64,000 nucleotides of DNA from Bdellovibrionales bacterium (GCA_041662785.1 JBAZRW010000003.1:142531-206530); one strand, 5' to 3'. Positions 1-43,017 are shown, counted from the stretch's first letter. Made by a program: numbers and translations. The notes: a model not told the origin generated them from the sequence alone.

Positions 1-541
1 GATTGAAAAAGGTCATATCAAAATTAATGAGTGGAGCGCGACGGACGAAGCGGGCCTCTACGCTATTGGCGACGTAACCGCGCCGCCTTGGCTTGCGCAT
101 AAGGCCAGCCATGAGGGTGTGATCTGCGTTGAGAAAATTATGGGCGCGAAGGATGTTCATCCGCTTGATCTTGGGAACATTCCGGGCTGCACCTATTGCA
201 CGCCGCAGGTTGCCAGTGTCGGCATGAGCGAGGCGAAGGCCAAGGCCGCCGGGTATCAGGTTCGCGTTGGGCGTTTCAATTTTATGGGCAACGGCAAGGC
301 GATTGCGACGGGCGAGCCGGAAGGCATGGTCAAGACCGTGTTTGATGCCAAGACGGGCGCTTTGCTGGGCGCTCATATGGTCGGTGCGGAAGTGACCGAA
401 ATGATCCAAGGCTTTACGATTGGCCGCGCGCTTGAAACCACGGAAGCTGAGCTAATGCACACGGTCTTCCCGCATCCGACCATTTCGGAATCCATGCACG
501 AAGCGGTGCTGGATGCCTATGGCCGCGTGGTGCATATGTAA
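1..541 (+). CDS. lpdA: dihydrolipoyl dehydrogenase, C-terminal part (5' end outside window)
   Basis: Frame 2 is open from the window edge. The translated C-terminal dimerisation domain (HMVGAEVTEMIQGF...TVFPHPTISE) is typical of E3 lipoamide dehydrogenases. Stop at 539-541. Confidence 0.85.
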   Translation, partial: IEKGHIKINEWSATDEAGLYAIGDVTAPPWLAHKASHEGVICVEKIMGAKDVHPLDLGNIPGCTYCTPQVASVGMSEAKAKAAGYQVRVGRFNFMGNGKAIATGEPEGMVKTVFDAKTGALLGAHMVGAEVTEMIQGFTIGRALETTEAELMHTVFPHPTISESMHEAVLDAYGRVVHM

Positions 542-574
542 TACCAACAGCGATAAGAAAACTGACCCGCGAAG

Positions 575-690
575 AAAAAAAGAAAACGGGCCCCCCGCTT
601 ACGCGGGAATGATGGGGTTTGTGTTTAGTTTTCTCCCCATAACCGTCACCCCCGCGAAAGCGGGGGGCCCGTTTGTTTTTCTTCCTACGC
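575..690. repeat. MITE-like palindromic repeat, family A copy
   Basis: AGAAAACGGG-cccccgcttacgcggg-aatga ... gtcacccccgcgaaagcgggggg-CCCGTTTGTTTTTCT: inverted terminal arms, each holding a GNRA-loop hairpin. Same architecture as copies at 19535, 20413, 30466 and 44158. Confidence 0.7.
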
Positions 691-746
691 GAGTCATTTA
701 ATAGGCCCGTTTGTAAAAGCGTCCCCTTAAAAAAGGACACAAAAAA

Positions 747-768
747 GGGGGCCACGCGCCCCCTTTTT
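747..768. terminator. bidirectional rho-independent terminator between lpdA and the BI-1 gene
   Basis: GC hairpin GGGGGC-cacgc-GCCCCC flanked by an A6 run upstream and a T5 run downstream. Confidence 0.6.
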
Positions 769-788
769 CATAAGTTGTATCTCATCCG

Positions 789-1502
789 TTAGCGGCGATC
801 CCCTGTCAGGCTGAGAAGGAATTGGAACGCGTTGATGAAGTTAATGTACAGGCTCAGCGCGCCGATGACCGCGAGCTTGTTGTTCGCCTCATCGCCCCAG
901 CTGGCGTTATAGGTCTGCTTGATCCTTTGTGTGTCATAGGCGGTGAGGCCTGTGAAGATGACAACGCCCGCGACCGACACAATCCACTGCATCATGCTCG
1001 AGCCAATAAACAAATTGACCAGCATGGCGATGAACAGACCCATCACGCCCATCATCAAGAACGCGCCAAAGCTGGTGAGGTCTTTCTTAGACGTATAGCC
1101 CCACAAAGCCATACCACTAAAGGTCGCCCCTGTGATAAAGAAAGCCCGTGCGACACTGGCCCCCGTGAAGACCATGAAAATAGCGGCCATGGACAGGCCC
1201 ATCGTGGCGCAAAAGAGCCAGAAGAGCGTTTGGGCTCGCGCTGCGCTAATTGTGGCCATCTTGAAGTTTAGATAAAAAACAAAGCCGAGAGGCGCAAGCA
1301 TCGCTACCCATTTCAGCGGTGAGCCGAAAATGATCTGAGCTAGAGCCGTGTTGGCAACGATAAAGGCGACAAGACCTGTTAGGACAAGACCGCCCCCCAT
1401 ATAGTTAAACACACGCACCATATGCGCACGCAGCCCTTGATCAAACGTCATGGCGCGTGAAGGCGCAGAAGCGGTAGGATTACTGAAGAATGGATCGACC
1501 AT
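789..1502 (-). CDS. Bax-inhibitor-1/YccA family inner-membrane protein
   Basis: 237-aa ORF with about 7 predicted TM helices and the BI-1/TMBIM-like layout; conserved Q/D-rich C-terminal region (YDTQRIKQTY). Confidence 0.7.
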   Translation of the reverse strand: MVDPFFSNPTASAPSRAMTFDQGLRAHMVRVFNYMGGGLVLTGLVAFIVANTALAQIIFGSPLKWVAMLAPLGFVFYLNFKMATISAARAQTLFWLFCATMGLSMAAIFMVFTGASVARAFFITGATFSGMALWGYTSKKDLTSFGAFLMMGVMGLFIAMLVNLFIGSSMMQWIVSVAGVVIFTGLTAYDTQRIKQTYNASWGDEANNKLAVIGALSLYINFINAFQFLLSLTGDRR

Positions 1503-1726
1503 AGTGATCAGCCTTTCAAAAATAAGTTGGTGACAGTATTAATATGGGCGTATTTTTCAGTTTTTCAAGAGAAATCGAAAGGAATAAGGCGTATCAATAG
1601 GTTGCAAAAGAAATAAGGACGTTTTGCCTTTTTGGTGGCGCATTTTCGCCCACTTTGTATGATGGTTAGGAGCGGCCTCGCCGGATTCCGAATCCTTATA
1701 CCTAATACTATCGTTTTTAATACAGG

Positions 1727-3817
1727 ATGCTTGCTATGAAGATGTTATCACGCTTTTTTCTGATCGCGCTTATCGCGCTGACCCCCTTGCTGGCGCAGGC
1801 CATGCCTTACCGTGAGCCGCCGATTCCCGTACGGAAGGGCATTACCCCTATCGCCGCAGAAATCGGGCAGCAGTTGCAGGCTCTTGTGACGGGCGATCCT
1901 AATGCTGTCGATATTGAGCCAGAGGAAACCTTTGGCACGCGCGCGTTGGGACTTGTTCTTAATGCGTTCAAATTGGTGGGCAGCGAAGGCGCGACCTTCT
2001 TTGATAATTTTGCAGCGTTGCCACAATTAGCAACATGGCTTGCCCAGCAAGCTAATGACCCGATCCTGCAAGCGCGGTGGATCGATACGGGCGCTCTGTT
2101 GCTGCTTGTCATCGGCGCGTCTTTTGCTGCCGGATGGCTGGCCGATCTTGTCTTTCTGGCCCTGCGTCACAAGATATATCACGCGACCTTTAAATCGCCG
2201 TGGAGGCGCTTTGGCGCCATCATGGGCTGGCTGGGGATTTCGCTTATTCCCGTTGTTCTATTCATTGCTGTGGCGGTCTTTCTGATCGACGCGCAAGATC
2301 CCACCAAGCTTGCGCGCTATATCGTGATGACGGTTGTGTACGCGTTGGCCCTATTGCGCTTGGTGCGCGTTTTGTTGCGCTTTTTCCTTGCGCCGCACGC
2401 GATTTCCTTGCGCTTTTTGCCGATCACGACAGAAGTGGCCTTGACAGTTCAAAGCTGGATCACATGGCTGGCCTCGGTCATGGTCACGGGTTTCTTTACG
2501 GCTGAGATTGCCAAGACGGTCAAGGTTCCGATGGCCGCGATTTCCGGCTTCACAAACCTTGTTGCCCTTATCGTCGTGGCCATGACGGTAGCGGTGATCG
2601 TGCGCAAAAGGGTGGCGATCTCGGCCTTTATTCGCGGCGATTTGACGGCGACGGGGGCACGCCATTCCCTGACGGGTGGTATACGCCTGTGGTTGGCGCG
2701 AACGTGGCATGTTCTGGCTATCTTTTATCTTATTGTCGGTTACATTGTAACGATGCTTGGCGCTGGCGGCGGTTTTACACTGTTGCAAAAGGGAACAATT
2801 GGCACGCTTCTTTTCCTTCTGGCGATGCGTTTTGCTTTTTATTGGATAGCGAAGCTGAAGTACCGCAAGGCCAATTCTTCGATTAATGCTGGCCTTTATC
2901 GTCCCGTCATGGGCGTTTTGCTGAAGATTGTAACGTGGGCTTTGGGGATGGCGGGTATAGCAGCTTCATGGGGCGTGGATGTTCCCGCCCTAGTCGCTAG
3001 CCCGTGGGGGCAGCGCGTTTTAGGCTCGGTCTTTTCTATCACCTCGATGTTGCTAATTGTTGTCTTGGTCTATGAGCTGTTGCACGCAGCCATTGAGCGC
3101 AAGCTGAACAAGCGCGATGCGCATGGCCGTGCTGTTCAAGCCAACGCGCGTGCAAGAACAATTCTTCCCATGGTTAAAATAGCAGCGGTGATGGTTCTGG
3201 CTGTCATCGTCGGACTTGTGACGTTGTCCGAGCTTGGCATCAACATCGCGCCCCTTCTGGCGGGCGCTGGTATTCTTGGAGTCGCCATTGGTTTTGGCTC
3301 ACAAACGCTGGTGAAAGATTTTCTGACGGGTCTTTCGATTATTCTAGAGGACAATCTGGCCGTTGGCGATTGGGTGACCATTGGCGGGAACAGGGGCGTT
3401 GTCGAAAATCTGTCTATTCGTACGGTGCGGTTACGAGATATCAACGGATCGCTTCATATCATGCCTTTTAGTGCCATTTCGGTTATCACTAATGAATCGA
3501 AGATATTCTCCTATGCTATGATGGATGTCGGCGTTTCCTATGACAGCGATTTGGATAGAGTGATGGAAGTTATTCGGAAAACGGGCGATGTGTTGCAGGT
3601 TGATCCTGCTTTTCAAAGCATCATCTTAGAGTCAATAGAGGTGTTAGGCGTTGAGGCGCTAGGCGACTCCTCAATCGTGATCCGCAGCCGCATCAAGACG
3701 AAGGCGGGCAAGCATGCTGTTGTTCGCCGCGCATTCTTGCTGGCAATCAAAAAGGCCTTCGATGCCGAAAAGATTGAGATTCCGTTCCCGACAGTCAAGC
3801 ATGTGAATGCGGATTAG
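1727..3817 (+). CDS. mechanosensitive ion channel, MscS family (MscK/KefA-like large variant)
   Basis: 696 aa with an N-terminal signal peptide, multiple TM helices and a C-terminal MscS core (DFLTGLSIILED...GDWVTIGGNRGVVENLSIRTVRLRDINGSLHIMPFS). Confidence 0.8.
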   Translation: MLAMKMLSRFFLIALIALTPLLAQAMPYREPPIPVRKGITPIAAEIGQQLQALVTGDPNAVDIEPEETFGTRALGLVLNAFKLVGSEGATFFDNFAALPQLATWLAQQANDPILQARWIDTGALLLLVIGASFAAGWLADLVFLALRHKIYHATFKSPWRRFGAIMGWLGISLIPVVLFIAVAVFLIDAQDPTKLARYIVMTVVYALALLRLVRVLLRFFLAPHAISLRFLPITTEVALTVQSWITWLASVMVTGFFTAEIAKTVKVPMAAISGFTNLVALIVVAMTVAVIVRKRVAISAFIRGDLTATGARHSLTGGIRLWLARTWHVLAIFYLIVGYIVTMLGAGGGFTLLQKGTIGTLLFLLAMRFAFYWIAKLKYRKANSSINAGLYRPVMGVLLKIVTWALGMAGIAASWGVDVPALVASPWGQRVLGSVFSITSMLLIVVLVYELLHAAIERKLNKRDAHGRAVQANARARTILPMVKIAAVMVLAVIVGLVTLSELGINIAPLLAGAGILGVAIGFGSQTLVKDFLTGLSIILEDNLAVGDWVTIGGNRGVVENLSIRTVRLRDINGSLHIMPFSAISVITNESKIFSYAMMDVGVSYDSDLDRVMEVIRKTGDVLQVDPAFQSIILESIEVLGVEALGDSSIVIRSRIKTKAGKHAVVRRAFLLAIKKAFDAEKIEIPFPTVKHVNAD

Positions 3818-4644
3818 CAGCGCTTATGCGCGCCTTGGGCAAGGGCGGCGGTAAAGGACAGAACCTCGCGCACAAGACCTTCGCGGGGATTGCCTGCGCC
3901 GTCCAAGCGCTTGGCGATATGCGTCATGATGGCGCTGCCTACGATCACGGCATCGGCGGCGCTTGCCATTTCATGGGCTTGCTCTGGCGTGCTGACACCA
4001 AAACCAATTGCGATGGGGAGCGTAGATTTCTCGCGCACACGCCCGATCAGATTGCCAAGGGAGGCGGCGGTTGCGGTGGCCGCCCCCGTAATGCCCGCAA
4101 TAGAAACGCAGTATAAAAAGCCTTGAGCGTCTTTAAGAACTGTCGGTAAGCGTCCCGCGTCTGTCGTTGGCGTCACAAGACGGATCATCAACATATCGCG
4201 CTGAGCGGCGGGAAGGCGGAACTCCGCATCCTCTTCGGGAGGCAAATCGGGGATGATAAAAGCGTCCACGCCCGCTTTTCTGGCATCGTCCAGAAAGCGC
4301 ATGATGCCATAGCTGTAAATTGGGTTGTAATAGCCCATCAGGATGATCGGCGTTTCGTTATCCGTTTTACGGAAGTCACGCACCATGTTCAAAATCTTAG
4401 GAACCGTGATGCCCGCTTTAAAGGCTTGCAGGTTCGCGGTCTGAATCGCAGGGCCATCCGCCATCGGGTCGCTGAACGGCATGCCGATTTCGATGATATC
4501 CGCGCCAGCCTTGGGAAAGCCTGCGAGGATCTCAGGGTAAAGCTCAAGGTTCGGGTAGCCCGCCGTGGCAAAGGGGATAAAGGCCTTTTGCCCCGCTTTT
4601 TTCAAGGTGGCGAACCGTGCGTCGAGGCGATTGATTGTGTCCAT
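3814..4644 (-). CDS. trpA: tryptophan synthase alpha chain
   Basis: 276 aa; TrpA motifs (FIPFATAGYP, EIGMPFSDPMADGPAIQ). Start overlaps the trpB stop. Confidence 0.9.
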   Translation of the reverse strand: MDTINRLDARFATLKKAGQKAFIPFATAGYPNLELYPEILAGFPKAGADIIEIGMPFSDPMADGPAIQTANLQAFKAGITVPKILNMVRDFRKTDNETPIILMGYYNPIYSYGIMRFLDDARKAGVDAFIIPDLPPEEDAEFRLPAAQRDMLMIRLVTPTTDAGRLPTVLKDAQGFLYCVSIAGITGAATATAASLGNLIGRVREKSTLPIAIGFGVSTPEQAHEMASAADAVIVGSAIMTHIAKRLDGAGNPREGLVREVLSFTAALAQGAHKRC

Positions 4645-5885
4645 TAGATTATGACTCCAAGGCGGTCGGCGACAGTAAAGATATCCTTGTCCCCGCGTCC
4701 TGACAGGTTGATGACCATAAGATGATCTTTAGGGAGCGTCGGCGCGATCTTGGCGACATAGGCCAGCGCATGCGAAGGCTCTAGCGCTGGAATAATGCCC
4801 TCTAACTTGCTGCAAAGCTGGAAGGCCTCAACGGCTTCATCATCGGTGATCGAGACATAGGACACGCGACCATTATCGTGCAGCCACGCATGCTCTGGCC
4901 CTACGCCCGGATAATCGAGGCCTGCCGAGATGGAATGAGCCTCTTGAATCTGGCCGTCCTCGTTCTGCAAGAAATAGCTGCGCATGCCGTGAAGGATTCC
5001 AGCGCGACCCCCTGTTAGGGCGGCAGCGTGCATGCCCGTCGCAATGCCATGACCGGCGGCCTCAACCGCATGAATGGCGATGCTGGGTTCATTTAAAAAC
5101 TCGTGGAAGAGGCCCATGGCGTTCGATCCGCCGCCAACGCAGGCGACCAGCGAGTCCGGCAGGCGGCCTTCGGCCTCCATCATTTGCTCACGCACTTCGC
5201 GTCCGATGATGGATTGAAAATCGCGCACCATGGCGGGGTAGGGGTGAGGCCCGCCGACCGTGCCGATGATATAGAACGTGTCATCGACATGGCTGACCCA
5301 ATCACGCAAGGCTTCGTTCATCGCGTCCTTGAGCGAGCGTGAGCCACTTTTGACCGCGCGAACCTCTGCGCCCAGAAGGCGCATACGAAAGACGTTGGGG
5401 CGCTGACGCTCAATGTCCAGCTCGCCCATATACACAACGCAAGGCAGGTTGAAGAGCGCGGCGACGGTAGCCGTGGCCACGCCATGCTGACCCGCGCCTG
5501 TCTCGGCAATAATGCGGGTCTTGCCCATCCGCTTGGCCAGTAAGATTTGCCCCATGCAGTGATTGATCTTATGAGCGCCTGTATGGTTCAGCTCTTCGCG
5601 CTTCAAGTATATTTTCGCGCCGCCAAACTTTTCCGTCAGGCGCGGTGCGTAGTAAAGAGGCGAGGGACGGCCAACGTAATGCTTCAAGTAATAATCCAGC
5701 TCTTTTTGAAAGGCGGGATCGTCCTTGGTGGCGTTATAGGCTTTCTCAACCTCTAACACCAAAGGCATCAGAGTCTCGGCGACAAACCGCCCGCCATAGG
5801 GGCCGAAATGACCTTGCTCGTCAGGCACGCTGTGCAGTGTTTCCGTATCGGATAATATGTTTTTCATGGACGGCAGATTAGACAA
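4644..5885 (-). CDS. trpB: tryptophan synthase beta chain
   Basis: 413 aa; PLP-site motif [13 protein letters not shown] and GGGSNAMG. Confidence 0.95.
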
Positions 5886-5911
5886 AAGGAATGGAGAAAG
5901 AAAGGGTTAAA

Positions 5912-5949
5912 AAGAATAGGGGCGCTTGTGAAAAGCGCCCCTATTCTTT
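5912..5949. terminator. bidirectional hairpin terminator (14-bp stem) between the SBP gene and trpB
   Basis: AAGAATAGGGGCGC-ttgtgaaaa-GCGCCCCTATTCTT followed by TTTTT; an A/T run is present on the other side too. Confidence 0.6.
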
Positions 5950-5970
5950 TTCTGTCTGCTGTTGCGCTCT

Positions 5971-6031
5971 ATTGTCCGCTACCACCCGTTAGGCGTTTCC
6001 ACCAGCCGCCTTTGGGCTGATCGCCACCGGA
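5971..6031. repeat. 61-bp direct repeat, copy 1 (duplicate of the rne 3' end)
   Basis: Identical to 6917-6977; it would encode the last ~20 residues of RNase E (NPSGGDQPKGGWWKRLTGGSGQ*). Confidence 0.9.
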
Positions 6032-6035
6032 GGGG

Positions 6036-6893
6036 TTAATTATTGCTGTGTCGGTAGGGGGTGGAGACACGGGGAAAAGCATCTCGAACGGGCTCGTATT
6101 TCTTAAGAATACGATCCATCTGACCACTGTAGACAATCTCCTGCATTGCGTAATCAAGAAACTCCTTTGTTTCATAATCGCCTTTTTTGACGACCAAGGC
6201 GTTTCCAAAAATCCGTAATGGTTTGTCGATGCCGAGGGAGCGAACTGTCCCCGGATTCTTTTGCAAAAACTCGGCAGCCATGGAAGGTTCGGCAAAAATA
6301 ACATCAGCTTTCTTCGTCACAACATTCTCAAAGTTTTGTGAAAACTGAGCTGTGTCAGGTAATGAGACACGCTCTAGCTCTGAAAAATCCGCACGGGCGA
6401 TAGAATCCTCCATCGCGCCATCGACGACCGATAACCGCGCCTTTGCCGTTCTAAGATCATCAAGCGTGTGAAACCGATTATCATCTGAACGAACCCACGC
6501 TTGAATGGTGCTGTAAAAGGCTGGCTGAGAGAAGGAAGCAGCCAAAGCGCGGCTAGCATTCGGCCACAGTCCGCCGCAGAAAACATCAAAACGACCCGCA
6601 TCCAATCCGGGCATGATGTTCTGAAAACCGACTTCTTCGGCCCATCGAATGCGCAAATCGGCATTACGACCAATTTGCTCCATGATGTCATAGAAAATGC
6701 CTGACAACTTTCCTGTGTTGGGGTCGAGGCGAATATACGGGGAATAGACCAGATATCCGCAACTGATCTCATGTGATGCGCGGATATGGTGCAGCGTTGA
6801 GGCGTTTCCATTTGCGTTTTGCTCTTGCGGTTTGCATCCACCAAGGAGTGAGATGCAAACGATAACTGCAAGTGATGCTTTACGAAAACTCAT
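6036..6893 (-). CDS. solute-binding protein family 3 (amino-acid ABC-type periplasmic binding protein-like) lipoprotein, orphan
   Basis: 285 aa with signal peptide plus lipobox (LLGGC) and the SBP_bac_3 fold pattern. ~40% identical to the paralogue at 24392-25252. No permease or ATPase genes adjacent. Confidence 0.7.
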   Translation of the reverse strand: MSFRKASLAVIVCISLLGGCKPQEQNANGNASTLHHIRASHEISCGYLVYSPYIRLDPNTGKLSGIFYDIMEQIGRNADLRIRWAEEVGFQNIMPGLDAGRFDVFCGGLWPNASRALAASFSQPAFYSTIQAWVRSDDNRFHTLDDLRTAKARLSVVDGAMEDSIARADFSELERVSLPDTAQFSQNFENVVTKKADVIFAEPSMAAEFLQKNPGTVRSLGIDKPLRIFGNALVVKKGDYETKEFLDYAMQEIVYSGQMDRILKKYEPVRDAFPRVSTPYRHSNN

Positions 6894-6914
6894 GTCCCCT
6901 CCTGTTAAAGCATC

Positions 6915-9494
6915 TTATTGTCCGCTACCACCCGTTAGGCGTTTCCACCAGCCGCCTTTGGGCTGATCGCCACCGGATGGGTTAACAACTTCATAGGATG
7001 AAGAGCCTTGTCCGACGGGTCTTGGTGTTGTGTCAAGATCATGAATGCTGGTTGGAATGAACGGCTTTGGCGCAGCGGCGCGTTCATGAGAGGCGCGTGG
7101 AGGGCGGCCTCCGCCATTCCCATTCCCCGTTGCGGGTGCAGCAGCGGCTTCGCCTGCTTCACGAGGCTCCCCGCCATTGCGGCGGCGACCACCGCGACGA
7201 CCACGACGGCGACGGCTCTTGCCATCAGGATCAGTATCCTGCTCTTGCGCCGAGGGGCGAGGCGATGATTGCAAATCTTCGCCCAGATCAAGGGAGGACG
7301 TGTTCGCTTCAGGAGAAGCAAAAGGATCATCCGTGGATGCACGCGGCGTTTCACTGCCTCGCCCTCCACGACGGCTTGTGCTGGGGCGGCCCGCGCGATC
7401 ATGTTTGCGGAAACGGCTGCGGCCCCCGCGGCGGCCTGTTCCTTCGGTTGAGCCTTCCTCTTGCGAGGGTGAGGGCGAGGAGTCCCCCTCAGTCTCATCA
7501 CGGGACTCGTCATGCGAGAAGAGTGGCATATCGCGTTCGGTATCAGCAATGACCTGATCCGCGTTCACAGCCGGTTCGGCGCGGCGAGACGTGGGGCGAC
7601 CCTTGGCGCGTTCCAACTTATAACCCGGAGGCGGGATCGCGTCGTCGTTTTGAATGACGATGGTCAGACCGTAGCGCGATTCTAAGGAGCCAACTGCGTC
7701 GCGCTTGTGGTTAAGGATATAGACGGCGACGTTGGTCGGAATTTGAACCGTGATCTCATTCGTGCGTTGCTTGATGGCTTCTTCTTCAATAGCGCGAAGA
7801 ATGGATAGCGCCGCCGAGTCAGGCGAGCGAATATAGCCAGAGCCGGAGCAATGCGGGCATTTCTCAAAGTTGATTTCAATCAGGCTGGGGCGCAGACGTT
7901 GGCGCGACAGTTCCAGCAAACCGAAGGGTGAGATGCGGCCAATTTGCAAACGCGCACGGTCATTCTTCATCGATTCTTTGATGCGGCGTTCGACGGCGGC
8001 GTTATTGCGGCCATCTTCCATATCGATGAAATCGATAACGACTAGACCTGCCAGATCGCGAAGGCGCAGTTGGCGTGCGATTTCTTCGGCGGCCTCAAGA
8101 TTGGTTTTAACCGCCGTTTCCTCAATATGGCGTTCACGCGTGGCGCGGCCAGAGTTCACGTCGATGGACACCAGCGCTTCGGTCGGGTTGATGACCAAAT
8201 AGCCGCCAGAGCGTAGCTGCACAATCGGGCTGTTGAGCGTATCAATTTGGTTTTCCACTTGGAAGCGGATAAACAGCGGCGTCGGATCGTTATAGAGCTT
8301 AACCTTGTCGGCCTGATCGGGCATGACGGCGCGTATAAACTCGTGCGCTTTTTCAAAGCCCTCTTGGCCTGCAATCAAAATCTCGGCGATGTCTTGCGTG
8401 TACAAATCACGCACCGAGCGCTTGATTAGGTTCGCTTCCTCATAAATCAGCGTCGGTGCGCTGGAGGCCAGCGTTTGTTCGCGGATGCTGTCCCACATGG
8501 ACAAAAGATATTCCAAATCGCGCTGAATGTCGGGCGGATCCTGTTCCATGCCCGCCGTGCGCAAGATGACGGCCATGCCTTCGGGGATTTCCAGTTGATC
8601 CAGAATCTCCTTCATACGGCGACGGTCTTGGTGATTGGTAATTTTGCGTGAGACGCCGCCACCGTGATCTGTGTTGGGCATCAAAACACAATAGCGTCCG
8701 GCAAGTGACAGGAAGCTGGTCAAGGCTGCGCCTTTATTCCCGCGCTCTTCCTTCACAACCTGAATGAGCATGACTTGGCCGCGCTTTAGGACTTCTTGAA
8801 TCTTATAGCGGGGGCGATGCTGGCGCACGATGCGCTCGGTCACTTCGCCGCCAACGCTTTCGGGCGGCGCTTCGGGCATTGCGACCTCGGTCAGCGACCC
8901 CCCCCCGATAGCGGCGTTGCCAAAATCTGTGATCAGGCCGACGCTTGTGTCCTCATCGCCAAACGCATGAGCCAAGCTGCTAATAGGGGCAGACGACGGC
9001 TGGGCGGTTGGGGCTGCGGAAGACTCCTCCGCCAAAAGAGCTTCCTCAACGGGAGCTTCATCCTCGGTTGGAGACGTTGTGGCCTTATCTTGCGTGTAGT
9101 CTTTGTCGTCGTCATCGGCCTCATCAGGAGCGGAATCGTTCCCGTTAAGCTCAGAGTCGATATCCGTATCCTCTTGGTCTTCTTCGTCCATAGAGTCGTC
9201 GTCCGACTCTTCCTCATCATGGGGGCGATCCGCCATGGGGATGCGGAAGTAATCGGGATGGATTTCGCTGAAGGGCAAGAAGCCGTGGCGGTTGCCGCCG
9301 TACTCGACAAAAGCGGCCTGCAAGGACGGCTCAATGCGCATGACCTTGGCCAGATAGATATTGCCCCGCAAGATAGGCTTGCTGGCCAAACTAAAGTCAA
9401 GATCTTCTAATCTATTGTTATCTCTATAGCTTTCGACAATTGCTATACGAGTCTCTTCGGGATGCATGGCATCCACCAACATTCTTTTCGTCAT
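6915..9494 (-). CDS. rne: ribonuclease E
   Basis: 859 aa. N-terminal S1 domain interrupted by a long acidic insertion (DEEESDDDSMDEEDQED...), as in alphaproteobacterial RNase E. Catalytic core present (DFIDMED..., CPHCSGSGYIRS zinc-link). Arg-rich C-terminal scaffold. Confidence 0.9.
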   Translation of the reverse strand: MTKRMLVDAMHPEETRIAIVESYRDNNRLEDLDFSLASKPILRGNIYLAKVMRIEPSLQAAFVEYGGNRHGFLPFSEIHPDYFRIPMADRPHDEEESDDDSMDEEDQEDTDIDSELNGNDSAPDEADDDDKDYTQDKATTSPTEDEAPVEEALLAEESSAAPTAQPSSAPISSLAHAFGDEDTSVGLITDFGNAAIGGGSLTEVAMPEAPPESVGGEVTERIVRQHRPRYKIQEVLKRGQVMLIQVVKEERGNKGAALTSFLSLAGRYCVLMPNTDHGGGVSRKITNHQDRRRMKEILDQLEIPEGMAVILRTAGMEQDPPDIQRDLEYLLSMWDSIREQTLASSAPTLIYEEANLIKRSVRDLYTQDIAEILIAGQEGFEKAHEFIRAVMPDQADKVKLYNDPTPLFIRFQVENQIDTLNSPIVQLRSGGYLVINPTEALVSIDVNSGRATRERHIEETAVKTNLEAAEEIARQLRLRDLAGLVVIDFIDMEDGRNNAAVERRIKESMKNDRARLQIGRISPFGLLELSRQRLRPSLIEINFEKCPHCSGSGYIRSPDSAALSILRAIEEEAIKQRTNEITVQIPTNVAVYILNHKRDAVGSLESRYGLTIVIQNDDAIPPPGYKLERAKGRPTSRRAEPAVNADQVIADTERDMPLFSHDESRDETEGDSSPSPSQEEGSTEGTGRRGGRSRFRKHDRAGRPSTSRRGGRGSETPRASTDDPFASPEANTSSLDLGEDLQSSPRPSAQEQDTDPDGKSRRRRGRRGGRRRNGGEPREAGEAAAAPATGNGNGGGRPPRASHERAAAPKPFIPTSIHDLDTTPRPVGQGSSSYEVVNPSGGDQPKGGWWKRLTGGSGQ
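6917..6977. repeat. 61-bp direct repeat, copy 2 (native rne 3' end)
   Basis: Perfect match to 5971-6031. Confidence 0.9.
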
Positions 9495-19534: not shown

Positions 19535-19665
19535 AAAGAAAAAAGAAAACGGGATCCCCGCTTTCGCGGGGATGACGATAGCAGGATGAAATTAAACACA
19601 AAACCCGTCATTCCCGCGCAAGCGGGAATCCCGTTTGTTTTCTTTCTCAACGAGTCGTTTCATGA
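19535..19665. repeat. MITE-like palindromic repeat, family A copy
   Basis: AGAAAACGGGATCCCCGCTTTCGCGGGGATGACG - atagcaggatgaaattaaacacaaaac - CGTCATTCCCGCGCAAGCGGGAATCCCGTTTGTTTTCT. Arms are about 38 nt and inverted. Confidence 0.8.
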
Positions 19666-22811: not shown

Positions 22812-22885
22812 TGGAGCGGGTGAAGGGAATCGAACCCTCATAGCCAGCTTGGAAGGCTGGTGCTTTACCACTAAGCTACACCCGC
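22812..22885 (-). tRNA. tRNA-Gly (anticodon TCC)
   Basis: Reverse complement GCGGGTGTAGCTTAGTGGTAAAGCACCAGCCTTCCAAGCTGGCTATGAGGGTTCGATTCCCTTCACCCGCTCCA folds as a cloverleaf with anticodon-loop UCC. Confidence 0.85.
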
Positions 22886-22935
22886 TCATGGGTGGTTGTT
22901 CTGTATCATGCCGTTTTTACGGCGGCAAGCCGCCG

Positions 22936-23040
22936 TGGGTGAAGGGAATGATCAAAAACAGGCGGAACGCGCCTGTTTTTGCCCCTTCGGGCGCCCCCGC
23001 TTCGCGGGATGCGTCCAAAATGCTTTCGCATTTTGTCGAT
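22936..23040. repeat. 105-bp segment B between 100-bp direct repeats: tRNA-Gly 3'-end fragment + GATCAAAAAC + palindromes
   Basis: TGGGTGAAGGGAAT (matches the tRNA-Gly 3' part) - GATCAAAAAC - CAGGCG/CGCCTG hairpin - TTTTTGCCC - cccgcTTCGgcggg and aaatgcTTTCgcattt hairpins. Confidence 0.6.
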
Positions 23041-23090
23041 CCTCATAGCCAGCTTGGAAGGCTGGTGCTTTACCACTAAGCTACACCCGC
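23041..23090 (-). pseudogene. truncated duplicate of tRNA-Gly (positions 1-50 only)
   Basis: 50 nt identical to the 5' half of the tRNA at 22836-22885, followed by an identical 50-bp upstream region (23091-23140 = 22886-22935); the T-arm and acceptor 3' strand are missing. Confidence 0.8.
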
Positions 23091-23152
23091 TCATGGGTGG
23101 TTGTTCTGTATCATGCCGTTTTTACGGCGGCAAGCCGCCGTTAATTCCTGCC

Positions 23153-23298
23153 GTCATCCCCGCGAAAGCGGGGATCCAGCTGCGAGCGATAGCGAGCGTG
23201 TGAGTCGAACAAGACAACAAACAGCACTTCCCTAGACCTTTTTTGAGTCACGTGGCCCGCAGACGCGGGCCGCTGGATCCCCGCTTTCGCGGGGATGA
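23153..23298. repeat. MITE-like palindromic repeat, family B copy
   Basis: GTCATCCCCGCGAAAGCGGGGATCCAGC ... GCTGGATCCCCGCTTTCGCGGGGATGAC perfect inverted termini around a ~90-bp core. Confidence 0.8.
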
Positions 23299-24391: not shown

Positions 24392-25252
24392 GTGAAAACT
24401 GTTGGTCTGTTCGTTGCCGCCATTCTAATCGCGTTATCGTCCGTTTGGCTTCACGATAAAAATGTGCACACTGTCAATGCAACGCAAGAGACAGCCTATG
24501 ATCGCGTGTTGCACACCAAGACTTTGCGGTGTGGATACGCTGATTGGCCTCCTCATGGACTTGTAAAAGATCCGAATACGGGAAAAATTTCCGGCGTCAT
24601 GTACGATATCCTTGAAGAGATTGGACGTCGTTTGAGTCTTAAGATTGACTGGAGCGAGAATACGGGGTGGAGCAATATTGTAAGCAGTCTTCAATCAAAG
24701 CGCATTGACGTTTTCTGCGCTGGTTTGTGGGTGAATGCCGAGCGTGGTCGTTCCTTGACATATTCTATGCCACTTTTTTTCAACGCATCGTTCCCCTTTG
24801 TCAGAATCGATGATCATCGGTTTGATAAGGACATCAAACGTGCCGATTCATCGGACATTCGTTTTTCTTCCATAGAGGGTGAGTTATCGGATGCCACAGC
24901 ACGCCTTCATTTCCCGAAAGCGCAGAAAATACCGGTGAGCCAGATGTTGCAGGCTTCCGAAGCCCTGAACAACATTGCAGTTAACAAAGCGGATATTATT
25001 ATTCTGGATTACAGCATGGGGAAAGGGTTCATAGATTCTAACCCTTCTACCTTGCGTAAATTAGGGGACAAACCTTTTCAGGTTTTCCAGAACTCCCTTG
25101 GCTTTGATATTCATGAAAACACGCTGCGCGATATGATTAACAATGCCCTTAATGAGATGCACAATCAGGGGGTTATTGCCAATATTGTTGCGAAACACAG
25201 TAACGATCCCAGTGAGTTTATTCCAGTCGCTCCGTCTTATTTGCAGCCGTAG
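24392..25252 (+). CDS. solute-binding protein family 3, orphan paralogue inserted between nusG and rplK
   Basis: 286 aa, GTG start with AAGGAG RBS, signal peptide. About 40% identical to the 6036-6893 product (shared CGY...DPNTGK.SG..YDI.E.IG......I.W.E..G......L.....DVFC.GLW). Confidence 0.7.
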   Translation: MKTVGLFVAAILIALSSVWLHDKNVHTVNATQETAYDRVLHTKTLRCGYADWPPHGLVKDPNTGKISGVMYDILEEIGRRLSLKIDWSENTGWSNIVSSLQSKRIDVFCAGLWVNAERGRSLTYSMPLFFNASFPFVRIDDHRFDKDIKRADSSDIRFSSIEGELSDATARLHFPKAQKIPVSQMLQASEALNNIAVNKADIIILDYSMGKGFIDSNPSTLRKLGDKPFQVFQNSLGFDIHENTLRDMINNALNEMHNQGVIANIVAKHSNDPSEFIPVAPSYLQP

Positions 25253-25441
25253 CTATAGTTTTTGTAATGGTCTTATTGGCCAGAAAAACACGTTGCTTTC
25301 CCTTCTGTTAACCTCTATAAAACCGCTTAAGCAAAAGGTGTGGGAGGTTCTCCCCGAAAAGTTCCCTTGGGGAGCCGGACCACGCCGCCGCTGTTTTTTG
25401 AAGGTGATTATCGACGGTTTTGGCCTGCTTTATCCTATAGC

Positions 25442-25523
25442 CGTCACTCCCGCGTAAGCGGGAGTCCCGTTTGTTTTAACAAGTAAACGGGATCCCCGCT
25501 TTCGCGGGGATGACGAAAATGGA
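25442..25523. repeat. family A arm-pair in outward (rearranged) orientation
   Basis: CGTCACTCCCGCGTAAGCGGGAGTCCCGTTTGTTTT-aacaagt-AAACGGGATCCCCGCTTTCGCGGGGATGACG. Confidence 0.6.
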
Positions 25524-27235: not shown

Positions 27236-27530
27236 ACAGCCCTAAGAGCGTGGGATAGTGCCACTCAGTCGCCTTCCGCTCAAAGTTAATGCGGTAAGCC
27301 TTTGAAATATAATAAAACTGACTCGATTTTTTGGCATGGCTAACCAATTGATTTTACATGGTTTTATGAACTTCGTCCGATTTTGGATCGCCAAAAGCAA
27401 AAAAAACGCAGGATTGGGGGCGACTCTTTTCGTCATCCCGCACCCCTCTACGCCCTTTGGGCTTCGCGGGGCAGGCGAAGCCTTGCGCGAAGGCGGGACG
27501 ATGATGCGGGACCTAGGGGACTGGGCGACG
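27236..27530. repeat. ~300-bp repeat, family C copy 1
   Basis: Shares about 230 nt of interrupted similarity with 52133-52440 (AGCGTGGrATAGTGCCACTCAGT..CCTTCCGCTCAAAGTTAA ... GCTAACCAATTGATT ... CCGATTTTGGATyGCCAAAAGCAAAAAA ... CGTCATCCCsgaCCCCTCTrCGCCCTTyGGGCTTCGCGGGGCAGGCrAAGC). Confidence 0.7.
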
Positions 27531-34744: not shown

Positions 34745-34855
34745 CTGTCCCATTCTTCGTCATCCCGCACCCCTCTACGCCCTTCGGGCTTCGCGGGGCA
34801 GGCGAAGCGACGCGTGAACATCGCGTAGATGCGGGATGACGAAATAGTGAATGGC
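34745..34855. repeat. hairpin module shared with family C repeats
   Basis: CGTCATCCCGC-acccctctacgcccttcgggcttcgcggggcaggcgaagc...-GCGGGATGACG; the same inner sequence is present at 27432 and 52336. Confidence 0.65.
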
Positions 34856-42705: not shown

Positions 42706-42735
42706 AAAAAGCGGGGCTTATGCCCCGCTTTTTGT
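42706..42735 (+). terminator. rho-independent terminator after the fasciclin gene
   Basis: GCGGGGC-ttat-GCCCCGC followed by TTTTTG. Confidence 0.7.
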
Positions 42736-42737
42736 TT

Positions 42738-42787
42738 GGTCGGAGAGAGAGGATTGATCAAAAACGCTCGCTTCTCGCGTTTTTGCC
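42738..42787. repeat. 19-nt direct copy of the tRNA-Pro 3' end + GATCAAAAAC + palindrome + TTTTTGCCC
   Basis: TGGTCGGAGAGAGAGGATT is identical to 42941-42959. The junction motif is the same as next to tRNA-Gly at 22936-22984. Confidence 0.75.
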
Positions 42788-42940
42788 CGTCAAGCGGCGC
42801 CTCGTCAGCCTCCGTTCTTTCAGAACTACGGCGTGACTGCGGCGTCCAAAACCGCCTTCGCAGTTTTGTCGAACCTCCTTCTTCGGTTCGAAATGCTAAT
42901 CTTTGACCATTAAAAAAGCCCCCCTATGGGGCTTTTTTAA

Positions 42941-43017
42941 TGGTCGGAGAGAGAGGATTCGAACCTCCGGCCCCTGCCTCCCGAAGGCAGTGCTCTACCG
43001 GGCTGAGCTACTCTCCG
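42941..43017 (-). tRNA. tRNA-Pro (anticodon CGG)
   Basis: Reverse complement CGGAGAGTAGCTCAGCCCGGTAGAGCACTGCCTTCGGGAGGCAGGGGCCGGAGGTTCGAATCCTCTCTCTCCGACCA; terminator hairpin immediately downstream (42912-42938). Confidence 0.85.

Follow-up and report, generated by a model that had tools for sequence, protein, structure and literature searches.

Organization of the rne-trpB locus

The locus described here lies in a window of 64,000 nucleotides (the whole stretch of DNA that was analysed, JBAZRW010000003.1:142531-206530 of GCA_041662785.1, with positions counted from its first letter). The window is part of a 207,865-bp contig from a metagenome-assembled genome (MAG) that carries the label Bdellovibrionales bacterium at NCBI. 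Four genes are read there from the minus strand, namely rne, which encodes RNase E, a gene for a lone solute-binding protein (SBP), trpB and trpA (Table 1); TrpB, the SBP and Rne have the consecutive accessions MFA6279966-68. The SBP gene separates two direct copies of the 3' end of rne, one of which completes the rne reading frame and the other of which lies as an orphan beyond the SBP gene, beside a strong transcription terminator. An initial annotation had read this arrangement as an insertion into the end of rne. The arrangement is real and that interpretation was essentially right; the event is of a known kind, in a new instance.

Table 1. Features of the rne-trpB locus, listed from rne towards trpA (window coordinates)
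Feature	Coordinates	Strand	Basis
rne (RNase E, 859 aa), with intact C-terminal GWW tail	6915..9494	-	ORF and Pfam
Repeat copy 2, the functional rne 3' end (last 23 codons, NPSGGDQPKGGWWKRLTGGSGQ); stop codon TAA at 6915-6917	6916..6985	-	Alignment with the L090, L092 and L093 tails
21-nt spacer from the rne stop to the SBP ATG, carrying the Shine-Dalgarno sequence AGGAGGGG	6894..6914	-	Sequence
Cargo: lone SBP_bac_3 solute-binding lipoprotein gene, 285 aa	6036..6893	-	Pfam PF00497
7-nt microhomology TTAACCC at the inner junction; rne counterpart at 6979-6985; the single mismatch lies between it and the perfect 62 nt	6033..6039	-	Alignment
Repeat copy 1, the orphan rne tail, with TAG at 5969-5971 in the rne frame	5970..6039	-	Same 9-nt GGS insertion as copy 2
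17-nt spacer from the orphan tail to the terminator (presumed original rne 3' untranslated region)	5952..5968	-	Sequence
Intrinsic terminator hairpin, 19-bp perfect stem and 5-nt loop	5909..5951	-	Inverted repeat and RNA fold
Conserved 41-nt trpB leader	5868..5908	-	Comparison with L100 5960-6000 and L102 about 2305-2345
trpB (ATG at 5867) and trpA	3814..5867	-	Syntenic with trpBA-mscS-bax1 of L100

The rne product matches the Pfam families RNase_E_G (2e-99), RNase_E_G_Thio (thioredoxin-like) and S1. Rne places the source among the alphaproteobacteria, next to genomes that bear the labels Micavibrio, Pseudobdellovibrionaceae or Rhodospirillaceae, and the organism is an uncultured Micavibrio-like alphaproteobacterium. 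Its Rne is 84-85% identical to the proteins of three genus-level relatives, L090, L092 and L093 (L numbers designate the sequences used in comparisons). The protein ends in PKGGWWKRLTGGSGQ, with a GWW motif within its last residues that is conserved in relatives. Polynucleotide phosphorylase (PNPase) binds to this C-terminal GWW in the RNase E of Caulobacter, and the motif was described as conserved among alphaproteobacteria (PMC3376730). By this motif the RNase E of the window is of the alphaproteobacterial type, with a putative PNPase-binding microdomain at its C-terminus.

The duplicated end of rne

The two copies are identical over 62 nt (5970-6031 and 6916-6977). The initial annotation, which gave the length as 61 bp, was correct about the perfect identity and short by one base; it had also noted that similarity continues a little further, and the match indeed reaches 70 nt (5970-6039 and 6916-6985) with a single mismatch, G at 6032 against T at 6978. 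This mismatch is synonymous in the rne frame (CCC or CCA, both proline). The distance between the two perfect direct repeats is 946 nt. Allowing up to three mismatches, the repeat occurs exactly twice in the window and in none of 100 dinucleotide-preserving shuffles. The possibility of a generic dispersed element, an objection that the initial annotation had raised against itself, was rejected on the count of two copies in 64 kb; the actual dispersed repeats of this genome are unrelated palindromes that resemble repetitive extragenic palindromic (REP) sequences.

The left (outer) edge of the repeat falls at the second base of the rne stop codon, which reads TAA in copy 2 and TAG in copy 1, in the same frame. 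At the inner edge, copy 1 ends in 8 imperfectly matching nt (6032-6039), which contain the stop codon of the SBP gene (6036-6038); past the shared TTAACCC, similarity between the copies falls to background in a pairwise alignment.

Copy 2 had been proposed to be the real end of rne, and this is borne out by the conserved tail YEVVNP...PKGGWW(K/R)RLTGQ, which ends Rne in all close relatives; the segment 6916-6985 is therefore the true rne end. Just past the GWW motif, both copies carry a 9-nt insertion (6925-6933 and 5979-5987) that adds GGS to the protein, so that it ends in LTGGSGQ rather than LTGQ. The insertion is missing in all relatives examined (L090, L092 and L093). Since both copies carry this lineage-specific insertion, the duplication is recent and was made from the lineage's own rne.

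After the insertion, RNase E would keep its complete C-terminal GWW microdomain, and the orphan tail would be a non-coding relic in the 3' untranslated region of the SBP gene. No promoter-like or terminator-like sites are predicted between rne and the SBP gene, and the promoterless SBP gene probably shares the rne transcript, which would then end at the old rne terminator. The terminator hairpin (RNA fold -32.5 kcal/mol, z -7.2) has an A-run and a T-run on either side and could work in both directions. An open reading frame (ORF) of 111 aa that ends in the orphan tail (5969-6304) was considered and rejected as a by-product: it has no Pfam match and overlaps the SBP gene out of frame, and there would be no sense in a frameshift that joined a lipoprotein destined for export to a cytoplasmic PNPase-binding tail.

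The locus in relatives

Family-level relatives (L006, L007, L095, L096 and L098) have rne followed by M48 peptidase-dsbA-aroQ-accBC, and the M48 peptidase gene also follows rne in 80 species-level genomes whose Rne is at most 63% identical. In the three genus-level relatives, where Rne is 84-85% identical in amino acids and rne 83% identical in nucleotides, the gene after rne differs in each: brnT-brnA and then a convergent gene for an enoyl-CoA hydratase (ECH) in L090, a brnT remnant with brnA and ECH in L092, and a 40-aa ORF with a methyltransferase gene in L093. On the upstream side, the rpoB-rne adjacency is common to the window and L093. After the rne stop codon L093 (5518-5530) and L090 (3684-3700) have only AAGCCCTC in common, and their sequences part at the ECH stop codon; this break in synteny again falls exactly at a gene end, and stop codons are a repeated site of rearrangement breakpoints in this genus.

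On the other side of the insert, trpBA-mscS-bax1 is common to the window and L100, in which alaS stands in place of rne-SBP; upstream of trpB, its relatives have alaS or a helicase gene. Similarity to the trpB leaders of L100 and L102 begins at 5908, the base directly after the hairpin, and the 17-nt spacer has no counterpart upstream of trpB in either. Hairpin, spacer and orphan tail are therefore parts of the rne block rather than of trpB, in agreement with the earlier proposal that the orphan copy stands beside the original terminator. The simplest ancestral locus would be the rne tail with TAG, the 17 nt and the terminator, joined to the trpB leader. Relatives with the same arrangement minus the repeat, which would have spoken against an insertion, were not found; nor was an empty rne-terminator-trpB site, as rne adjoins trpB in no relative and the collections hold no conspecific genomes. 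A scan of metagenome contigs with a degenerate pattern of the tail returned only two distant rne tails, each in single copy.

In the window, L100 and L102 trpB is preceded only by this conserved leader, which in the window stands directly behind the strong terminator. No sigma-70-like promoter is predicted before trpB, and the DNA further upstream is wholly different among the three genomes.

A parallel case in the genus

A second insertion of the same layout was found in L090 (GCA_017973795.1, JAEMOL010000039.1), where the brnTA toxin-antitoxin module (about 3805-4312) is flanked by direct repeats at 3694-3752 and 4319-4377. The repeat consists of 49 identical nt and 10 nt with four mismatches (a fuzzy repeat of 59 nt). 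The convergent ECH gene (stop codon 4321-4323) has its functional 3' end in the second copy, and the first copy is an orphan that lies 10 nt after the rne stop. As in the window, the order is gene body, functional tail, stop, cargo and orphan tail, and the repeat has a sharp edge at the ECH stop (plus 2 nt) and a fuzzy one towards the gene body (6 of 10 positions match). L092, an independent assembly that is 86-89% identical to L090 in nucleotides, still has brnA and the ECH tail, along with 10 nt from the start of the orphan copy (2938-3560), and its brnT is truncated. Because L092 keeps this orphan stub, the L090 structure is real and older than the split between the two.

The core of the L090 orphan (3694-3742) is identical to the functional tail at 49 of 49 positions, where about three substitutions would be expected under neutrality (nucleotide divergence between L090 and L092 is about 12-14%). 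This suggests gene conversion or some constraint.

The repeats of the two cases have no motif in common: the best local alignment between the rne-tail and ECH-tail repeats scores 12, which 1853 of 2000 shuffles also reached, and there is therefore no common att core. A scan of 1.07 Mb from rne loci of other alphaproteobacteria for perfect repeats of at least 22-35 nt around a cargo turned up only tandem repeats within genes.

The inserted gene and its homologues

The SBP matches PF00497 over residues 50-266 (E 1.2e-20), and its NCBIfam matches all fall far under the cut-offs. An N-terminal hydrophobic stretch ends in LLGGC, a lipoprotein-type signal, and alignment with its homologues in the family shows the SBP to be of full length. 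Its clade holds 55 proteins among 5.8 billion, the best non-self match being 71% identical. It was described at the outset as a single binding protein lacking transporter partners, and this holds: no ATP-binding cassette (ABC) ATPase signature (LSGGQ or Walker-A) occurs in any frame of the 64 kb, and the neighbours of the gene are rne and trpB. The homologues examined are likewise lone genes, each in another housekeeping context (four other contexts): at tRNA-Lys and coaD-gyrA in L002 and L004, after hisS in L086, and at dcd and aroA in L088.

A single genome, GCA_028691835.1, holds both a 69%-identical SBP (L004) and a 79%-identical Rne (L096). Because relatives of both proteins occur together there, the SBP gene looks native to this bacterial family, moved to the rne locus rather than brought from afar. 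Non-coding flanks of the SBP gene show no similarity to the flanks of the 70%-identical homologues. At third codon positions the G+C content (GC3) of the SBP gene is 0.48, against 0.60-0.65 in rne, rpoB and trpA.

Among solved structures (PDB), the SBP comes closest to amino-acid-binding proteins and to reconstructed ancestors of cyclohexadienyl dehydratase, an enzyme with its evolutionary origin in this SBP family. The SBP gene adjoins trpBA in the window, and the L088 homologue (7001-7879) lies between dcd and aroA. A role of the SBP in aromatic amino-acid metabolism rather than in transport is possible.

The window contains a second lone SBP_bac_3 gene, SBP2 (24392-25252, plus strand), which is 32% identical to the first and has the same GC3. 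It starts 20 nt after nusG and lies between nusG and rplK, breaking the highly conserved string secE-nusG-rplK-rplA, with REP-like palindromes downstream. The initial annotation had asked if other copies of the SBP gene are bounded by duplicated host DNA; neither SBP2 nor the homologues in L086 and L088 have flanking direct repeats. In L002, an 18-nt perfect direct repeat, CCGAAGCTTTAGCGTAGG (490-507 and 1912-1929), flanks tRNA-Lys together with the SBP homologue; it forms a hairpin loop in both copies, on stems that differ in sequence, and is probably a dispersed hairpin element. In L004, a prophage-like region (230-7731, with ParB, terminase GpA and a 513-aa serine recombinase) abuts tRNA-Lys just upstream of the SBP homologue, and the recombinase ORF runs at its end into the tRNA gene.

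Mobile-element hallmarks and other repeats

The locus lacks the usual marks of a mobile element. Between 1 and 30 kb of the window no integrase or transposase gene was found, and the ORFs there are housekeeping genes or have no Pfam match. The ends of the cargo bear no inverted repeats, and the absence of plasmid or viral matches led to the rejection of a phage or plasmid cargo. A transposon or insertion sequence would likewise leave a target duplication directly flanking the insert, but of 2-14 nt, whereas the duplication here is 62-70 nt long and is accompanied by neither a transposase nor terminal inverted repeats. Integron cassettes resemble the insert in being single promoterless ORFs that are co-directional with, and expressed from, what lies upstream, and toxin-antitoxin modules, the cargo of L090, are common in integrons. 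Unlike an attC site, however, the repeat is host coding sequence. No attC-like fold is seen in DNA folds of both strands of both repeats (z from -1.5 to +0.85, about +0.9), the repeat boundaries carry no GTTRRRY core (they read GTTAACA and GTTAATT), and there is no intI gene. An attC site was rejected for want of such a fold, as was an att core shared with L090 for want of a common motif.

Several other repeats occur in the window. At tRNA-Gly(tcc) (22812-23141), behind the tRNA gene lies a perfect direct repeat of 101 nt (22836-22936 and 23041-23141) that comprises the 5' half of the tRNA and 51 nt upstream of it. The second copy is a pseudo-tRNA (29.1 bits in Rfam), and its T-loop is broken by an element of roughly 90 nt (22950-23039) with the ends GATCAAAAAC...TTTTGTCGA and two terminal hairpins. 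At tRNA-Pro(cgg) (42727-43017), the intact gene is followed, 204 nt downstream, by an orphan fragment of its 3' end (28 nt), each copy having its own terminator hairpin, and the orphan is split in its T-loop by a copy of roughly 117 nt (42756-42872) of the same element, here GATCAAAAAC...TTTTGT. The GATCAAAAAC element has only these two copies in the window, both in T-loops of tRNA fragments. The dispersed REP-like palindrome CGTCATCCCCGCGAAAGCGGGGATCC has at least 8 intergenic copies between 14693 and 44285 (e.g. 23151-23177, 19540-19578 and 25441-25516), and a separate 63-nt repeat (27429-27491 and 34756-34818) has 92% identity.

Proposed insertion by general recombination

The explanation that we favour, with roughly even confidence, is a recent, scarless duplicative insertion by general recombination, homologous and illegitimate, that involved no dedicated mobile element. 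A piece of roughly 0.95 kb, consisting of the rne tail, TAA, 21 nt with the Shine-Dalgarno sequence and the SBP gene, would have recombined with the resident rne tail. This could have happened in two ways. In the first, a small circle closed at TTAACCC would enter by a Campbell-type single crossover within the 62 nt of identity. In the second, a linear fragment from a conspecific strain that already had the SBP gene behind rne would be anchored by homology in rne, and its other end would be closed by illegitimate joining at TTAACCC, that is, by homology-facilitated illegitimate recombination (HFIR) without deletion. Either route would yield gene body, functional tail, cargo, orphan tail and original terminator in the observed order. 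Recombination between the 62-nt copies would excise the SBP gene precisely, which would make the insertion reversible; since the perfect repeats leave it excisable, its persistence suggests a very recent origin or selection for the SBP.

The combination of a sharp edge at the stop codon, microhomology at the other edge, and neither a recombinase nor a common core fits general recombination. The sharp edge is the point at which an rne-SBP allele and an rne-terminator allele would lose homology, and because the DNA behind rne is hypervariable in the genus, strains of one species could plausibly differ at this point. The cargo joins both repeats without a seam, since only 21 nt precede it and its stop codon falls within the repeat; a join at microhomology fits this, and decay of a larger island is hard to reconcile with it. 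The local and recent character of the duplication, the L090 case with its unrelated repeat, and an SBP family that is native to these bacteria also speak for this explanation.

There is experimental precedent for both routes. In E. coli conjugation, most recombinants were single crossovers of a circularised molecule, which duplicated a 109-950 bp segment of lacZ homology flanking the insert, and HFIR junctions typically have 3-10 bp of microhomology (PMC3240628). The present case is like these in that the insert stands between direct duplications of a homologous segment, with microhomology at one junction, and needs no dedicated recombinase. It is unlike them in being a natural event with only 62-70 nt of homology, a cargo of one promoterless chromosomal gene, and a duplicated segment that matches the final 23 codons of an essential-type gene exactly, so that the gene is restored. 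Typical HFIR deletes recipient DNA, whereas nothing was deleted here, and the donor and any circle would have to be supposed.

Several points weigh against this explanation. The species is represented by one assembly in the collections, and no donor allele (rne-SBP without an orphan tail), empty site or circular form was found. The 7-nt microhomology could be coincidental, the true event being a 70-nt target duplication followed by one mutation. The window has two tRNA loci with duplicated gene fragments, a signature classically left by integrases, and site-specific integration therefore occurs in this genome. Finally, the GC3 of the SBP gene, lower than that of its neighbours, hints at an origin more foreign than a conspecific allele, although SBP2 has the same value.

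Alternative explanations

Prophages and integrative and conjugative elements that target tRNA genes, icd or fda insert at the gene's 3' end, of which they bring a copy along, and cis-mobilizable elements (CIMEs) are their integrase-less derivatives. The SBP gene could accordingly be the remnant or satellite of a site-specific element whose attP mimicked the last roughly 70 nt of rne, the rest having been deleted, or a CIME-like module that has no integrase and was mobilised in trans. We regard this as unlikely, although the anatomy speaks for it. The order of gene, restored 3' end, cargo, displaced 3' end beside the original downstream DNA, and terminator is the classic signature of 3'-end integration, with a repeat that ends at the stop codon, and the lack of an integrase in the locus is as in CIMEs. 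The same architecture surrounds brnTA in L090 and, at tRNA-Pro, a tiny insert. Recombinases are also not far away in relatives, with a P4-like integrase island 1.6 kb from the L090 locus and the serine-recombinase prophage next to the SBP gene in L004. However, the cargo and its surroundings contain neither a recombinase gene nor other genes of an element, and viral or plasmid relatives are absent. The single-gene cargo of 0.88 kb abuts both repeats, so decay would require two deletions that ended exactly at the att sites. The rne and ECH tails lack a common motif, so a single recombinase with a defined core could not account for both cases, and both copies in the window bear the 9-nt insertion of the host lineage itself.

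The two possibilities that the initial annotation had offered, an insertion that duplicated its target and a duplicative recombination, are not fully separable, although the microhomology at one junction favours recombination. A long target duplication would arise from a staggered break in the rne tail, with nicks 62-70 nt apart, and end-joining of an SBP fragment with the overhangs filled in, or from a template switch during replication that copied the SBP gene and resumed 62-70 nt upstream. In its favour, a perfect repeat directly abuts the insert on both sides without any element features, TTAACCC at one junction is what template switching or microhomology-mediated joining would be expected to leave, and one mismatch in 70 nt is compatible with a duplication of that length and one later mutation. 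We nevertheless judge it distinctly unlikely, because it leaves the outer edge at the stop codon unexplained, here and in L090, unless selection removes other outcomes. In L090, moreover, the four mismatches cluster in the last 10 nt beside a perfect 49-nt core, unlike random decay. We know of no precedent for staggered breaks of 60-70 nt in bacteria.

Equally doubtful is the proposal that the two cases reflect a recurrent, yet undescribed, process of cassette insertion in the genus, in which small modules come to lie exactly behind the stop codon of a resident gene and the last 50-70 nt of that gene are duplicated. Such a process may be a sequence-independent counterpart of integron cassettes, acting through an unknown trans-acting enzyme or through circles that carry host-gene tails. 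If it existed, each insertion would be scarless and precisely reversible and would leave essential C-terminal motifs intact.

Last and very improbable is an assembly artefact or population mixture, in which the genome would have rne tail, terminator and trpB, and the SBP segment, a 946-bp circle or a piece of another strain or locus, would have been threaded through the 62-nt repeat: the contig is metagenome-assembled, a Logan unitig built at k=31 (L001, 944 nt) extends precisely from the one repeat to the other, and at k up to 62 a linear insertion and a circle plus empty site give the same graph, but standard metagenome assemblers finish at k=127-141, and one that finished above 70 nt would have resolved the repeat, threading needs reads that join each SBP end to the repeat and thus some molecule in which rne tails are physically linked to the SBP gene at either side, and the diverged copies of L090, backed by the independent assembly L092, indicate that such structures exist in the DNA of this genus.

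Implications

If insertion by general recombination is correct, the locus is a natural snapshot of one chromosomal gene joining a housekeeping operon without the machinery of a mobile element. Some 62 nt of homology and 7 nt of microhomology would then suffice, the duplication would itself repair the recipient gene, and the event could be undone by recombination between the copies. By analogy with the PNPase recruitment known from Caulobacter, an insertion that did not restore the GWW tail would be likely to uncouple the degradosome. For annotation, short orphan gene tails behind an inserted gene would be useful markers of recent insertions. Synteny breaks in this lineage cluster at gene ends, and insertions of this kind would help to explain its gene order, with lone SBP genes behind essential genes such as rne and nusG in the window, and hisS and dcd in relatives.

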